The notes under the pieces were generated by a model. It had not been told where the DNA came from, did not search any database, and worked only from the letters and a program-made list of their open reading frames with translations. Source: a virus. Taken from it: DNA of 49,651 nucleotides. The DNA is taken from IMG/VR virus record IMGVR_UViG_3300045988_028961, one strand, 5' to 3'. Shown here piece by piece: positions 346 through 49,651 of this stretch. The first letter of the stretch is position 1; each line of letters begins with the position of its first letter. The position numbers and the translations under genes are program-made.

Positions 346-608
346 TGGGTAAGCAACATCTATCCCGCGATGAGCGGCTGATACAGCAAGGGCGCCTGAA
401 AGGTACGCAGGAGTGCATGGACATGGTGGCGATGGTGCTGATGGACAAGTGCGGCTGGCATGTGCAGGAGCAGACTGAGGACTGTCGGGACACGCAGAGC
501 ATTGCGTATCTATACGAGTGTCTGACGCAGATCGCGCAGGAGATCAACGATGGCCGTATCCGTCGGCGGCATATCAAGGATATGCTCAAATATGATCTAC
601 ACCAATGA
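345..608 (+). CDS. hypothetical small protein (87 aa)
   Basis: The ATG overlaps the preceding TAA (TAATG coupling). No domain recognised. Confidence 0.5.
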   Translation: MGKQHLSRDERLIQQGRLKGTQECMDMVAMVLMDKCGWHVQEQTEDCRDTQSIAYLYECLTQIAQEINDGRIRRRHIKDMLKYDLHQ

Positions 609-1665
609 CCCGATAGCGCCGGAGCGGGCCAAAACCCTGCTGGCGCTGCCGCTGGAAGATAAGATTGTCACCTCGTGGGAGAAGATCGACCAGTGGTATA
701 CTGCGTGGGGCGGGCAGTGCTACGTCTCGTTCAGCGGCGGCAAGGATTCCACCGTACTGGCGTATCTGACGGCGCGGTATCTGGCAAGCTTCCGGACGCC
801 GCCGTGGCCGCTGAATCTGGTGTTTGTGAACACGGGGCTGGAATATCCAGAAATCCAGCGGTTTGTCAACGAGTACGCCGACTGGCTGCGGAAGGAGTTC
901 CCGCACATCACCGTGAATCTGGTGCGCCTGCGACCAAAAATGAACATCACGCAGGTGGTGACGAAGTACGGGTACAGCATCGTGAGCAAAGAGGTGGCCA
1001 ACTGCGTGTGGCTGGCCCGCAAGAGCAAAAACGAAAGTAGGATGGCAAGGTTACGGGGCGAGATGCTGGACAAGGCCGGGAACAAGAGCGTCTGGAACTG
1101 CGACAACTGGTCGTTTCTGTTAGATGCACCGTTTCAGATCTCCTCGGAGTGCTGCCGGGTCATGAAGAAAAGCACCGCACACGCCTACGAGAGAAAAGCC
1201 CACGAAAAGCCGATGGTGGCGACGATGGCTACCGAAGGACGGCAGCGGATGCAGAGGTGGATGGTGACTGGCTGCAATGCGTTTGAGGGCAAACGGCCTA
1301 TAGGCAAGCCTATGAGTTTCTGGACGGAGCAGGACGTGCTTCACTTTCTTGTTGACCGCCAGATACCCTATTGCGGCGTATACGGCGACATCGTAGCCAG
1401 CGACGGCGAGAACGACTACGACACTACGTTGGTGGACTGCCCGTTGCATTGCACGGGGTGCCAGCGCACGGGCTGTATGTTCTGCGGATTTGGGGCGCAC
1501 TTGGAAAAAGGCGTCAACCGATTCCAACGGATGAAAGAAACGCACCCAAAACATTACCGTTTTTGCATCGGCGGCGGGGCGTTCGACACGGACGGTCTGT
1601 GGAAGCCCACCAAGGACGGGCTGGGCTATGCGCGGGTGCTGGACTACATTGGAGTGAAATACTGA
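592..1665 (+). CDS. PAPS-reductase / DndC-IbrA-like PP-loop family protein
   Basis: PP-loop motif SFSGGKDSTV and a C-terminal Cys cluster CPLHCTGCQRTGCMFCGFG. The start is uncertain: ATG 592 (MIYTNDP) or ATG 550. Confidence 0.8.
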   Translation: MIYTNDPIAPERAKTLLALPLEDKIVTSWEKIDQWYTAWGGQCYVSFSGGKDSTVLAYLTARYLASFRTPPWPLNLVFVNTGLEYPEIQRFVNEYADWLRKEFPHITVNLVRLRPKMNITQVVTKYGYSIVSKEVANCVWLARKSKNESRMARLRGEMLDKAGNKSVWNCDNWSFLLDAPFQISSECCRVMKKSTAHAYERKAHEKPMVATMATEGRQRMQRWMVTGCNAFEGKRPIGKPMSFWTEQDVLHFLVDRQIPYCGVYGDIVASDGENDYDTTLVDCPLHCTGCQRTGCMFCGFGAHLEKGVNRFQRMKETHPKHYRFCIGGGAFDTDGLWKPTKDGLGYARVLDYIGVKY

Positions 1666-1679
1666 GAGGAGGAAGTGGC

Positions 1680-2127
1680 GTGAACACAGAAACTATGTTT
1701 TCCAGCGACAAAAACTACTGGGAGACGCCGCAAAGGTTGTTTGACGAGCTGGACGCGGAATTCCATTTTACGCTGGATGCCGCCGCCATCGACGAGAACC
1801 ACAAGTGCGAGAGGTACTTCACAGAGAAAGAAAACGGCTTGCGGCAAAACTGGGGGGGGTGAAACGGTGTTCTGCAACCCGCCGTATGGCAACAAAGAGA
1901 CAGGGCTATGGACGGAAAAATGCTACGCGGAAGCACAGAAGCCGGGAACAACGGTGGTACTGCTGATCCCCGCCCGAACAGACCGTGCCAGTTTCCATGA
2001 TTACATATTGGGCAACGCTGAAATACGCTTTCTACGCGGCAGACTGAACTTTGAACTGGACGGTCAGCCTATGGGACCTGCGCCGTTTCCCAGTATGGTT
2101 GTGATTTGGAGGGGAGGAAGCATATGA
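1680..2127 (+). pseudogene. Phage Dam-type N6-adenine DNA methyltransferase split by a frameshift at a G8 homopolymer
   Basis: The N-terminal part reads ...KNYWETPQRLFDELDAEFHFTLDAAA...NWGG and ends at TGA 1860-1862. The C-terminal part, in the next frame, reads ETVFCNPPYG... and runs to 2127. The junction is tGGGGGGGGt at 1852-1859; removing one G gives NWGGETVFCNPPYG in one frame. Confidence 0.75.
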
Positions 2128-2864
2128 CACGAGATGAAATCGTGACCGCGCTGCGGTGCTGTGCAGAACCGGGGCGAGACTGCAAAGAAGATTGCCCAAT
2201 GAACGAGATAAGCCGTGAACCGTGTCGTGAAATATTGGCTCCGGCCGCTGCTGATCTGATTGAGAACCAGCAGTGGGAAATAGAGGCGCTGAAATCTGCT
2301 CTGCATGAAATGGCTACTGACCTTGTGGCGTGGGGAAGAGTTGATTATTGGCTTTGCGACGATGTACCGACGAAACTGCACATGAAGCACCAGCCGAAAA
2401 ACGACGGAAATTACGAAAATGAACCGTGTGTCGAATGTGTGAAAGAATATTATTTGCAGAAAGCGAATAACAACCCCTCCGTCACCTTCGGTGCCACCTC
2501 CCCTTACACAGGAGAGGCAAGGGCTGTCGAGGACGCCAGCCCCTACGCAGCGACCGCCGAAGCCCCGGACGGTGACGAAATCTGCCGTGCGGCGCTGGAT
2601 ACGTTTGGCGAAGCGGTGCAGATCACAATGGTTTTCGAGGAGATGGCAGAGTTGCAGGACGTGCTGTGCAAATTCCTGCGCGGGCGTGTGGAGGACGATA
2701 CGCGCACCCACATTGCAGAGGAGATCGCCGACGTGGAGATCATGCTTCAGCAAATGGTGATGCTGTTCGACTGCGCGGGACAGGTGGAAGGATTCCGCTG
2801 GTACAAGCTGGAGCGGCTGGCGGGGCGGATCGAGGAGAAGAAAAATGGAAAAGAAAATACTTGA
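2124..2864 (+). CDS. Two-domain protein with a C-terminal MazG-like nucleotide pyrophosphohydrolase domain
   Basis: EEMAELQ ... EEIADVEIML motif pair typical of MazG-like all-alpha NTP-PPases. Cys-rich N-terminal region. ATGA overlap with the Dam stop; RBS GGAGGGGAGGAAG upstream. Confidence 0.6.
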   Translation: MTRDEIVTALRCCAEPGRDCKEDCPMNEISREPCREILAPAAADLIENQQWEIEALKSALHEMATDLVAWGRVDYWLCDDVPTKLHMKHQPKNDGNYENEPCVECVKEYYLQKANNNPSVTFGATSPYTGEARAVEDASPYAATAEAPDGDEICRAALDTFGEAVQITMVFEEMAELQDVLCKFLRGRVEDDTRTHIAEEIADVEIMLQQMVMLFDCAGQVEGFRWYKLERLAGRIEEKKNGKENT

Positions 2865-3354
2865 CGTGACGTGTGGGTCAAGAACGATATGGTTTGATAA
2901 ACAGCATCCGGCGGCGGTGTACTGCGATGTCCGCGATGAAGAATGTTCTGCGGTCTGGTCAAGCACCAAGCATGATTCTGAGCGAAAATGCATCATTCAC
3001 CCGGACATTCAGTGCGATTTTACGGATCTCCCGTTTCCGGAAAACACGTTCTCTCTCGTTGTTTTTGACCCGCCACACCTGCGCCGCATAGGCGAAAACG
3101 CATGGATGAGGAAAAAATACGGACAGCTTGGAGAAAACTGGCCGGAAATGCTGCATGATGGGTTCCAAGAGTGTATGCGCGTTCTCAAGCCGGATGGTGT
3201 ACTTGTTTTCAAATGGGCCGAAACGCAGATACCTGCGGGAGAAGTGTGGAAAGCGCTCGGACAAAAGCCTCTTTTCGGGCACCACAGCGGAAAGAAATCG
3301 CAAACCTTCTGGGGATGCTTTATGAAATTGGAGGGCGGCTATGGATGCGGTTAA
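2845..3354 (+). CDS. Small SAM-dependent (probably DNA) methyltransferase
   Basis: Motif I-like ILDVTCGS and motif IV-like VVFDPPH. 169 aa. Confidence 0.65.
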   Translation: MEKKILDVTCGSRTIWFDKQHPAAVYCDVRDEECSAVWSSTKHDSERKCIIHPDIQCDFTDLPFPENTFSLVVFDPPHLRRIGENAWMRKKYGQLGENWPEMLHDGFQECMRVLKPDGVLVFKWAETQIPAGEVWKALGQKPLFGHHSGKKSQTFWGCFMKLEGGYGCG

Positions 3355-4754: not shown

Positions 4755-5535
4755 GTCATGGGGACGTGCATACCCCATGACACCTCCTATTCATCATCTT
4801 GCTTGCATTCATTTTTCATTCTCCTTTCTGTGGACCGTCGTTGCACGGCGGCGGGCACACACGGCATTGTAGCTCAATGGGGAAGAGCGCACGGCGGGGA
4901 AACGCCGTCGATGGTCGTTGCAGGTTCGAGTCCTGCCAATGCCTCAATACCGGCTTTCACGGTATCGTTTTCCTTTCGACCGCTTACCCGCCAGCGGTAT
5001 ATGACGGGTATCTGCCGGACTGCGTGAGCTACCCCACGATCAGGGGCGAGAGGTCGCACCTCCCATCCGGCACCAAGGAGTGAAGCTTGACAGGAAACGG
5101 TGGAGTGTGCCGACACTTAGAAAACGGCTGGGCAATGCGGAGCCTGTAGAGACGGAAACCGCGACGAAAAAAGTGGTGCGGCACTACCGTGGGCAAGTGG
5201 CATAGCGTCCCGTCTGAAAGTGTGCCAGAACATTGAAGCGGCAGGCGCTCCGCCATGCGTTTGCCGTGAAGTTCCGAAGGGTTGTGCGTATTCCTCAAGG
5301 CGGATAGGCGAGAGCCGAAAGAAAACGCACCATTGCCGCTTTATCCGTGTATTGAGCGGCTAAAAATAACACGGTTGCCAATAGACGTGCCGCCCGTCCG
5401 GCGTAAAAGGCGGCTTGCACAGCATATCAGGGATAGCCCGACGGGGTGAAAAGCGGCCATTTCCTGCCTTTTGGCCGCTTCCCTGAATATAAAAAAGGCA
5501 GCATAACGATGTTCACACTTTAAATTTTTATATAA
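4755..5535 (+). ncRNA. Candidate large structured non-coding RNA (ROOL/GOLLD-class context); boundaries approximate
   Basis: ~0.86 kb without a credible ORF in a tightly packed genome. Extended -10 TGgTACAAT at 4745-4753. Many GC helices with GAAA-type loops and long-range complementarity (5131-5143 with 5247-5265). Contains a tRNA-like element. Confidence 0.45.
4863..4944 (+). tRNA. tRNA-like element with a non-canonical anticodon arm (identity undetermined)
   Basis: 7-bp acceptor GGCATTG/CAATGCC. D arm GCTC-AATGGGGAA-GAGC. T arm GCAGG-TTCGAGT-CCTGC. The anticodon position is a 6-bp stem ACGGCG/CGCCGT closed by a GGGAAA hexaloop (no U33, no 7-nt loop). 11-nt variable region. Confidence 0.45.
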
Positions 5536-10280: not shown

Positions 10281-10371
10281 TGGGTTATCCTTGGGAAGAA
10301 AGCCACGGTTCGCTTTGGATAAACATCGGGACTGCTGAAAATCCAGATTGGGTGTTTTTGGGAGCCATAAA

Positions 10372-12036
10372 ATGAACAGATACCCGTTCGACCCCGCTAC
10401 TTTAGATGCGCTGCCGGAGGAACTGGCGGAGTTGTATCGCGGGCTGGAAGATACCCTGTTGATGGAGATATGCTCCCGGCTCAAGACTTCGGACGAGCTG
10501 AACGAGGTCACGGTGCAGGACATCAAGGCGCTTCGGGCGCACGGCATTGACCCGAAGGAGATCGAGAAAGCCATACGCAAGACCACGGGCATCAGTGAGC
10601 AGAAGCTCAAGAAGTTGCTGGACGATGTAGTGGCACGGAATCAGGCGTATTACACCGAGCTTATTACGTTGGCGGATGTGACGCGGCCTGACGTGCTGGT
10701 GGACGCGGCGGCTATTGCGGCGATCTACGCACAGACAAAGCAAGAGTGCCGGAACATCACCCGCAGCATGGGCTTTTTGGTGGACAATGGCCGGACGATG
10801 CTGCCGCCTGCCAAAGCGTACCAATGGTGCTGCGATTCCGCGCTTATGCAGGTGCAGAGCGGCGCGATTTCCTACAATCAGGCGATATCCAATGCCGTGA
10901 AGCAGCTGGCGGACAGCGGCTTGAAAACGGTGGACTACGAGAGTGGGCACCGGGATCAGGTAGACGTGGCGGCGAGACGGGCCGTTATGTCTGGCGTGAA
11001 CGCTCTCAATCAAAAGTATGCGGAGCAATCTGCCGAATATCTGGAGACCGATCTTGTGGAAGTAAGCGCTCATATCGGGGCGCGAAACACGGGAAACGGG
11101 CTGGAAAACCATGAGAGTTGGCAAGGCGGCGTGTATCGGTGGGCTGAGAAACCCGGAGATTCAAAGGGCGAGTACAAGGATTTTGTTGCTACCACCGGAT
11201 ACGGCCAGGGCGCTGGTCTGGGCGGATGGAACTGCCGACACACCTTTTATCCGTTTGTGGAGGGCATCAGTGAGCCGACCTATTCACAGGCCGACCTTGA
11301 CGCCATGAAGGGCGAGAACCGCAAGTTTGTGTTTGATGGCAAGGAGTACGACGGGTACACAGCCACGCAAATGCAGCGCAGCATAGAGCACCAGATACGC
11401 AAGCAGAAGCGCCTTAGAGACGCTTACAAGGCCGCTGGGCTGAAAGATGACGAGACCGCCGCCAACATCAAGCTGCGCCGCCTGAACGCCAAATACAAGG
11501 AATTCAGCAAGGCGGCGGGGCTGCCGGAACAACCGGAGCGGTTGAAGGTGCTTTATGGCGATACAAAAAGCACTGCCGCCGCTCAAGCGCTTAAGGCGCA
11601 GCGGCAAGCAGAAGCCGCACAGGCAGCGTTGCAAAACGAAAAGAATATCGCTATACTGAAAGAGAAGATCGCCAACGGCGAGATATCCACAGCAATCAGG
11701 CCACAGGTGCAAGCACGCCATATCGAAGGAACGGCGGAGTTTGAGCGGTATAAGGCGCAAAGACTTGCAAAGGGTAAGACTCCGCAAAGCATCTTAACGA
11801 TCACCGTAAAGGAAGCACAAGAAATCGTTGATAAATACGCCTGCACGGGAACTGTGACCATTAAGACGCCGAAAGACGCCCCAATAGAAATCAGAGAGTA
11901 TAGGAACGTGGATAAGGTGATCGGGCAATACTACAAAAACAATGCTTTCCACAGCACAAAACGCGCCATAATTGTGTACGCAAAAAAGGGGACACACATC
12001 GTTCCGACGATTCCAAAGGAGGATCAACATGGTTAA
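10372..12036 (+). CDS. MuF / SPP1 gp7-like head morphogenesis protein with a C-terminal toxin-like extension
   Basis: Follows the portal. The central region ...GGWNCRHTFYPF... is typical of the Mu F / minor capsid family. A coiled-coil linker leads to a ~115-aa extra domain ending ...YAKKGTHIVPTIP. TTG 10348 is an alternative start. Confidence 0.8.
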   Translation: MNRYPFDPATLDALPEELAELYRGLEDTLLMEICSRLKTSDELNEVTVQDIKALRAHGIDPKEIEKAIRKTTGISEQKLKKLLDDVVARNQAYYTELITLADVTRPDVLVDAAAIAAIYAQTKQECRNITRSMGFLVDNGRTMLPPAKAYQWCCDSALMQVQSGAISYNQAISNAVKQLADSGLKTVDYESGHRDQVDVAARRAVMSGVNALNQKYAEQSAEYLETDLVEVSAHIGARNTGNGLENHESWQGGVYRWAEKPGDSKGEYKDFVATTGYGQGAGLGGWNCRHTFYPFVEGISEPTYSQADLDAMKGENRKFVFDGKEYDGYTATQMQRSIEHQIRKQKRLRDAYKAAGLKDDETAANIKLRRLNAKYKEFSKAAGLPEQPERLKVLYGDTKSTAAAQALKAQRQAEAAQAALQNEKNIAILKEKIANGEISTAIRPQVQARHIEGTAEFERYKAQRLAKGKTPQSILTITVKEAQEIVDKYACTGTVTIKTPKDAPIEIREYRNVDKVIGQYYKNNAFHSTKRAIIVYAKKGTHIVPTIPKEDQHG

Positions 12037-49270: not shown

Positions 49271-49651
49271 ATGAAAGCTTACAAGGGCTTTGATAAGAAT
49301 TTGCAGTGCCGTGGTTTGCAGTATGAGATCGGCGGAACGCAGGAATTTGACAATGTGAAATTGTGCGAACGAGGCGGGCACGCATGCGAGGCGCCGTTAG
49401 ACGTGTTCAGATATTACGAACCGGGCAAAGGCAGCCGGTATTGTGTCGTGGAGTTGGACGGCGTGAGCGAGGAACGCGGCAACGACAGCAAGCGTGTTGC
49501 CAAGAAGCTTACCGTCGGAGCGGAGATCGGAATTCCCGGTTTGGTAAAGGCGCACATTGAGTATGTCAAGGCGCATACAACGATGGAGCATACTGACCCG
49601 AAAGCAGCCACGGCAGGCAACTTCGGCGCAGCCACGGCAGGCAACTTCGGC
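49271..49651 (+). CDS. N-terminal part of the wrap-around repeat protein (DUF7666-like N-terminal domain); continues at 1..345
   Basis: RBS AAGGAGAATG... before ATG 49271. There is no stop before the window end. MKAYKGFDKNLQCRGLQYEIGG...CERGGHACEAPLDVFRYY is a conserved phage/bacterial N-terminal module as far as I recall. The ATAGNFGA repeats begin at 49607. Confidence 0.75.
   Translation, partial: MKAYKGFDKNLQCRGLQYEIGGTQEFDNVKLCERGGHACEAPLDVFRYYEPGKGSRYCVVELDGVSEERGNDSKRVAKKLTVGAEIGIPGLVKAHIEYVKAHTTMEHTDPKAATAGNFGAATAGNFG

Follow-up and report, generated by a model that had tools for sequence, protein, structure and literature searches.

A poly-G tract that splits a phage Dam-family methyltransferase gene: a probable mutational on/off switch

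The window, by which we mean the whole 49,651-nucleotide stretch of DNA that was analyzed (IMG/VR record IMGVR_UViG_3300045988_028961), is a complete, circularly permuted phage genome. It encodes an antirepressor, a small and a large terminase, minor capsid protein 2, and an E-type major capsid protein, and it probably represents a temperate, tailed phage of human gut samples. A megablast search against phage records found no close relative of the window, and the contigs from metagenome-assembled genomes that carry relatives have inconsistent taxonomic labels (Oscillospiraceae, Alistipes, Odoribacter, and Staphylococcaceae). The ends of the window cut inside an array of 24-nt (8-aa) tandem repeats, ATAGNSGA/ATAGDRGV, which lies within a DUF7666 gene at positions 1-345 and 49380-49651 (joined across the permutation point). 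The copy number of this repeat varies between otherwise identical contigs, so that the product is 314 aa long in L013, 250 aa in L015, and 234 aa in L016. The plus-strand gene at 10348-12036 combines a Phage_min_cap2 domain (PF06152) with a bacterial toxin domain, Ntox50, at its C-terminal end.

A Dam-family methyltransferase gene is found adjacent to a PAPS-reductase-like gene, within a DNA-modification module, and is divided between two reading frames. The features of this region are as follows.

550-1665, plus strand: PAPS-reductase-like PP-loop protein (PF01507, 2.8e-14), the upstream neighbor in the same DNA-modification module.
1668-1672, plus strand: ribosome-binding site GGAGG, 7 nt 5' of the GTG start, read directly from the sequence.
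1680-1862, plus strand: ORF-A, the N-terminal 60 codons of the Dam-family methyltransferase and a premature stop (PF05869).
1852-1859, plus strand: poly-G tract of eight G's (G8), taken directly from the sequence; a slippage-prone site that would be in frame with seven (G7).
1860-1862, plus strand: frame-0 TGA that results from the added G, which turns GGT GAA into G GGT GAA and hence gives the reading GGG TGA A.
1861-2127, plus strand: ORF-B, the C-terminal 88 codons in the +1 frame, with a TGA stop at 2125-2127 (PF05869).
1867-1869, plus strand: GTG (Val63) in the ORF-B frame, 7 nt 3' of the G run, used as a start in some gene calls.
1876-1887, plus strand: catalytic motif IV, NPPY (AAC CCG CCG TAT), invariant in a 61-sequence alignment.
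2124-2864, plus strand: downstream gene whose ATG overlaps the ORF-B stop, with no Pfam match.
2845-3354, plus strand: second small class-I methyltransferase in the module (Pfam Methyltransf_11, 2.8e-07).

ORF-A begins at the GTG at position 1680, and its product reads VNTETMFSSDKNYWETPQ...LRQNWGG. The run at 1852-1859 is exactly eight G's long, and TGA follows directly at 1860-1862. ORF-B reads ETVFCNPPYG...IWRGGSI and is free of any other lesion. An earlier note on this DNA had claimed that the G8 run splits a Dam-type methyltransferase, and both the coordinates and the PF05869 matches of the two halves agree with that description. One G fewer gives a contiguous 148-aa methyltransferase, and the same 148-aa protein is obtained when the window is read with a single four-base step (GGGT read as G). 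The further claim, that either seven or ten G's would restore the same uninterrupted sequence, holds for G7, but G10 restores the frame with an extra glycine (NWGGGETVF); exact product look-ups, which covered the 148- and 149-aa forms, found no G10 allele.

Both halves were positively identified as parts of Pfam family PF05869 (Dam, phage DNA N6-adenine methyltransferase), for which the curated gathering cut-off is 28.1 bits. The N-terminal half scores 56.9 bits over profile positions 6-58 and the C-terminal half 33.7 bits over positions 62-145, and the joined reading gives 100.2 bits (E=1.3e-28) in a contiguous match over 6-145 of the 169 positions. An uninterrupted ORF spanning the whole domain is absent from the window, which carries a broken allele of a family member. 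In the joined product NPPY occupies residues 66-69, and 41 of 41 invariant alignment columns are retained. Single-ORF homologues number in the thousands; the closest is 148 aa long and the identity does not exceed 86%, although an in-frame protein with a higher identity could be missed, because the search ran on protein clusters looser than 90% identity, inside which P0158 and P0174 were hidden. Among cultured phages the family is present in 1,306 records, the nearest being from Geobacillus phages, at 66% identity.

The joined product was modeled with AF2, using 60 homologues as the alignment (pLDDT of 88.8, pTM of 0.85), and is predicted to be a complete class-I AdoMet N6-adenine methyltransferase fold. 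The closest solved folds to the model are the N6-adenine methyltransferases PCIF1/CAPAM (TM scores of 0.71 to 0.73), followed by E. coli Dam; no relative of the joined product in the PDB was detectable by sequence. Gly59 and Gly60, which are encoded by the tract, are placed in a loop before the strand at 62-65, with NPPY at 66-69 next. The N-terminal third contains FTLDAAA, which we take to be a degenerate AdoMet-binding motif I. Since the Pfam match is contiguous, the homologues are single ORFs, and the modeled fold is complete, we conclude that the two halves belong to one gene. Comparisons between haplotypes gave an omega of 0.04 to 0.11 for the C-terminal half in its own frame (p<=1e-7) and of at least 1 in the other two frames; ORF-B is therefore under purifying selection in its own frame only, and the gene, being conserved and selected, would be functional when in frame.

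The G8 run is the only homopolymer of at least eight of any base, and the only G/C run of at least seven, in the 49.6-kb genome. Dinucleotide shuffles of the window nevertheless gave a mean of 3.0 G8 runs, with at least one in 85 of 100 shuffles, and the run alone is within chance expectation. Chance does not account for where the run lies, which is just where a conserved gene changes frame, or for how it behaves in relatives.

Homopolymers are classic sites of miscalls, and the earlier note had raised a homopolymer miscall as the trivial alternative, namely, that the true sequence is G7 and the split an artefact of sequencing or assembly. Other assemblies of the phage were fetched by way of the upstream PAPS-reductase-like protein, so that their retrieval was independent of the tract. 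Seven loci (L013 to L019) were obtained in this way from differing samples and assemblers, namely MEGAHIT, SPAdes (with a Hadza sample among them), and two JGI metagenomes; each carries G8, and the 448-nt gene is 100% identical among them. The contig L111, from a scan of metagenomes, has G8 as well, and at the DNA level the identical G8 is found in nine independent assemblies; the window's exact junction was not found in IMG/VR. In a collection of 15 billion proteins, the truncated 60-aa product is encoded on 31 contigs, with a further 5 and 2 under other start calls, and the products of the upstream and downstream neighbors on 30 and 27 contigs, respectively; these counts are so close that they leave no room for in-frame copies. 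Sister haplotypes, moreover, assemble as G7 in many samples, in some cases at 177 to 243x coverage, and elsewhere as G8 at 179x, which argues that assemblers resolve both lengths. With the same G8 in every independent assembly of the phage, across different studies, samples, and assemblers, the artefact is hardly credible, and the miscall can be set aside.

One of these loci departs from the window outside the gene. L018/L111, a 7,486-bp contig, matches the window over 2.4 kb (430-2829, comprising the PAPS-like gene, the split Dam gene, and the start of the next gene), and past that stretch the strand changes and the genes are unrelated, encoding a metallophosphatase/5'-nucleotidase and an aminotransferase. 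The contig could derive from a prophage remnant, from recombination, or from chimeric assembly.

Comparison of the tract in related phages, as the earlier note had suggested, was carried out with degenerate pattern scans that accepted any tract length in IMG/VR, GTDB genomes, and metagenomes. At this position the closest in-frame relatives have either G7 or a run with an interruption, for example GGA GGC or GAG GGC. The scans recovered 86 loci with tracts from G6 to G11, of which 54 are in frame, 21 are shifted by +1, and 11 are shifted by +2, so that the frame is lost in 32 of 86, in either direction. Across the Dam genes of many gut phages, the run at the corresponding W-G-G-E codons ranges from G6 to G14; some of the long tracts (G11 on a 1.9-kb contig and G14 on a 3.0-kb one) are from short Logan contigs and perhaps less reliable. 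Both halves are full length in every evaluable out-of-frame locus except L023, which has a second lesion.

The tract is length polymorphic between otherwise identical genomes from different samples. L044 and L063 have no mismatches over 6,709 bp, nor do L042 and L043 over 7,885 bp, and in each pair the sole difference is one G in the tract; L021 and L033, and likewise L043 and L058, are near-identical genomes that show the same single-G difference. In a tree of 39 haplotypes, the out-of-frame alleles are mostly tips with identical in-frame sisters. Counts from the large protein collection, in which contigs are not equivalent to independent samples, were obtained for six haplotypes, the last two of which belong to the window's clade.

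P0124/L052: 38 contigs in frame; 15 to 24 out of frame (G8), plus one G11 and one G14.
L035: 99 contigs in frame; 4 out of frame.
L042: 81 contigs in frame; 3 out of frame.
L063: 3 contigs in frame; 5 out of frame.
L089: 8 contigs in frame; about 11 out of frame.
L145: 4 contigs in frame; 1 or 2 out of frame.

For P0124/L052, both states occur inside the same studies, for example, G7 in SRR1747029 and G8 in SRR1747030. The G11 and G14 tracts occur in the P0124 backbone (L079 to L085, L095, and L132 to L141), where the same Dam haplotype has a C5 DNA methylase/HNH fusion on one side and a Mom-like gene on the other. The occurrence of one Dam haplotype in differing phage backbones suggests that the small Dam gene moves between DNA-modification modules. 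In P0010 (233 aa) and P0007 (223 aa), the Dam ORF continues into the downstream gene or an extension; the run-on occurs at the G-rich 3' end (IWRGG; GGAGGGGAGGAAG), the equivalent of 2100-2127 in the window, which may be a second indel-prone spot.

Two further observations bear on how the tract changes and why it persists. Loci are out of frame more often in lineages whose in-frame form is G9 (16 of 27) than in those with G7 (11 of 53; p=0.001), the length dependence that slippage predicts. The first glycine codon of the W-G-G-E motif is GGG in 26 of 34 distinct in-frame genes, compared with 20% of the other glycine codons in those genes (p=3e-12 in an unbiased scan, by a statistic that ignores phylogeny); as synonymous sites are otherwise saturated, this over-use indicates that the G run is maintained. 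Taken together, the comparisons show that the tract is a hypermutable site in nature.

We consider it likely that G8 is a genuine, heritable +1 allele in a slippage-prone poly-G tract that acts as a mutational on/off switch of the Dam gene. The tract encodes the W-G-G-E loop just 5' of the catalytic NPPY strand, and slipped-strand mispairing during replication would add or drop G's there. G7 would be the ON state, with the 148-aa enzyme intact, and G8, G6, G11, or G14 would be OFF, with truncation after 60 residues, such that the N-terminal third containing FTLDAAA is separated from the catalytic part. The coexistence of both states for identical gene sequences in related phages would then amount to a switch of phage-encoded adenine methylation, of which the window's haplotype would represent the OFF position in every population sampled. 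The allele is real, the length of the tract is polymorphic, and the remaining gene is intact and selected. Replication slippage is the most likely cause; switching may be reversible and frequent, and it may have an adaptive role, for example the bet-hedging between classical restriction-modification and methylation-dependent nucleases that the earlier note proposed. A very similar pattern across relatives would arise if the gene were simply lost again and again at a mutational hotspot, with no adaptive value. The state of the tract might also extend beyond Dam: the ORF-B stop overlaps the ATG of the next gene (ATGA, 2124-2127), translation of the gene at 2124-2864 may be coupled to that of ORF-B, and the OFF state may, through this overlap, lower the translation of downstream genes.

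The on/off idea of the earlier note receives strong comparative support in the sister haplotypes and the wider family, but not in the window's own haplotype, for which the 15-billion-protein collection holds 0 in-frame and 38 out-of-frame contigs; the in-frame count comes from exact look-ups of the 148/149-aa form with the MNTET start, which would miss other start calls. Sister haplotypes, when pooled, are about 81% in frame. The contigs of the window's haplotype are near-clonal (99.9% identity over 5.6 kb), so the 38 are not independent, and one inherited OFF allele suffices to account for them. Even so, their spread across many human populations is what would be expected of an early pseudogene, in which the extra G is a fixed loss-of-function mutation at a mutational hotspot, Dam is dispensable, and the gene is being lost, without any switching. 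The phage evidently thrives although the gene is broken, there is another methyltransferase gene 700 nt further downstream, and decay does occur, as the second lesion in the relative L023 illustrates. There is likewise no sign of special pressure on GATC, which is not depleted in this Dam-OFF genome (242 sites observed and 240 expected). The earlier note had proposed that a dead gene would be recognized by a fixed G8 together with further inactivating mutations. G8 is indeed fixed at the consensus level, but no further inactivating mutation is present: neither half has a secondary lesion, and all family-invariant residues are retained. The coexistence of G8 with G7 in sister haplotypes indicates that reversion is mutationally accessible, the haplotypes of the clade have diverged under strong purifying selection, and the tract itself is conserved against codon bias. 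On balance, we regard the pseudogene as unlikely, and prefer the switch.

At one stage the window's clade (the window, L088/L089, L143/L144, and L145, with G8 and TGA) appeared to be always frameshifted and yet selected, which suggested recoding. This reading was withdrawn because G7 forms of L089 and L145 were found. The frameshift-only appearance was a retrieval bias, the loci having been fetched through their truncated products, and was worsened by the loose protein clusters. From its tract sequences, the window's clade appears to switch like the other clades, and we attribute the purifying selection on the C-terminal half to the time spent in frame.

A third alternative is that G8 is leaky, with full-length or two-piece Dam still being made, and that tract length is a dosage dial rather than a switch. 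Three routes can be envisaged: a +1 ribosomal slip in GGG GGG UGA, either from GGG to GGG in the run or from GGG to GGU at the stop; slippage of RNA polymerase along the G's; and termination followed by reinitiation at the GTG at 1867, with the G run serving as a Shine-Dalgarno sequence. GGG-U is a +1 shift-prone context, and a slip within the run would re-pair perfectly and yield exactly WGGE. The UGA abuts the run and the GTG lies 7 nt further on; some gene callers start an 86-aa ORF-B product there (gene calls in L079 to L085, L143, and L145), and it is, speculatively, a candidate reinitiation site. Alleles with T after the run, the type that creates an immediate UGA, are also more often out of frame (7 of 17) than those with C (4 of 36; p=0.025, uncorrected for phylogeny). 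A dosage dial, if true, would explain why G8 alleles with UGA are common and why this haplotype succeeds as G8 everywhere.

The comparative evidence does not favor such leakage, however. Out-of-frame alleles are both +1 and +2, and only some of them have a stop at the tract, which argues against a conserved recoding signal; most homologues are plainly in frame; and the deep clade that had seemed to be frameshift-only dissolved once the in-frame forms of L089 and L145 were found. The GTG is found without exception in the 25 haplotypes compared, yet fixation at other fourfold sites is already 84 to 92%; its conservation is not clearly above theirs and is weak evidence for an internal start. We therefore judge leaky expression to be improbable, more so than the pseudogene, and retain the mutational switch as the preferred reading.

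The window also contains a tRNA gene at 4863-4945 on the plus strand (Rfam RF00005, 45.5 bits) whose anticodon arm is abnormal. The anticodon called by ARAGORN has four bases, GGAA, and the arm can be folded as a 6-bp stem with a 6-nt loop, GGGAAA, or as a 5-bp stem with an 8-nt loop, GGGGAAAC. This tRNA was considered as a frameshift suppressor and rejected; its anticodon cannot pair with GGGU, GGGG, or UGAA, and so it could not read the tract junction in support of leaky expression.

Orphan methyltransferases of phages determine whether the phage DNA escapes host restriction or falls to methylation-dependent nucleases, and a slippage tract in such a gene would let one lineage yield both methylated and unmethylated progeny. 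Many temperate gut-phage lineages share one poly-G site, which in PF05869 Dam genes encodes the loop preceding the catalytic strand; both tract states are common in human gut metagenomes, with roughly one in three of the loci that bear a tract being out of frame. For annotation, this means that such split genes are to be treated as real alleles, neither errors nor plain pseudogenes, and it bears on the reading of gut-virome methylomes and on predictions of host range.

The principle is already known from the Bordetella phage gene bpm, from Campylobacter phages, and from bacterial phasevarions. We found no published description of a poly-G site in the PF05869 genes of gut phages. Several hallmarks of a phase-variable locus are present, in that a frame-setting simple sequence repeat lies within the ORF and the tract is kept against codon bias; length polymorphism is found in the sister haplotypes and the wider family, but not in the window's haplotype.

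The bpm gene (bbp30), reportedly first described by Liu and colleagues in the Journal of Bacteriology in 2004, is similar in being an adenine methyltransferase gene of a temperate phage with an intragenic poly-G tract that varies by single G's. The tract is G8 in BPP-1, where it is in frame and annotated, G9 in BIP-1, and G10 in BMP-1, and it is the only difference over 900 nt among the three (L146, 29758-30513; L147; L148). The BIP-1 and BMP-1 records carry two annotated features each, and the missing bpm gene call there is uninformative. Bpm differs in belonging to PF01555 (N6_N4_Mtase), in its length of 251 aa, in having the tract elsewhere in the protein, and in its proteobacterial host; it is also known from three isolates only, whereas the gut-phage Dam gene is documented by counts at population scale.

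In Campylobacter phages, the tracts reportedly lie in receptor-binding protein genes, and switching is said to have been demonstrated experimentally by Sorensen and colleagues, whereas for the gut-phage Dam gene we infer it from comparative metagenomics alone. These phages are reported to carry hypermutable polyG tracts (Sorensen et al. 2021, Cell Rep 35:109214, cited in PMC12823448), and intragenic changes in polyG length give rise to ON and OFF phage subpopulations; they differ in being lytic and in having the tracts in genes other than a methyltransferase.

Leaky expression would have a parallel in the programmed +1 ribosomal frameshift of prfB (CUU UGA C), which places a shift-prone codon directly before UGA, with a G-rich, Shine-Dalgarno-like stretch upstream. 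The window's GGG GGG UGA A may resemble this arrangement, with a spacing that differs from that of prfB; in the Dam family, moreover, the shift is neither obligatory nor conserved.

Phasevarions share with the gut-phage gene a simple sequence repeat inside a methyltransferase ORF, on/off control by frameshift, and the resulting epigenetically mixed populations. The Type III mod genes of Haemophilus, Neisseria, and Helicobacter are switched in this way. Further methyltransferases switched by simple sequence repeats include ModM of Moraxella (PMC6902483), with phase-variable methyltransferases also described for Actinobacillus (PMC10123105) and a repeat-switched Type IIG enzyme for C. jejuni (PMC4889913). 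Phasevarions differ, however, in that they are chromosomal, derived from restriction-modification systems (Type III, I, and IIG), found in bacterial pathogens, and regulate host regulons, whereas the gut-phage Dam is a small orphan phage methyltransferase (PF05869) whose presumed role is the protection of phage DNA.
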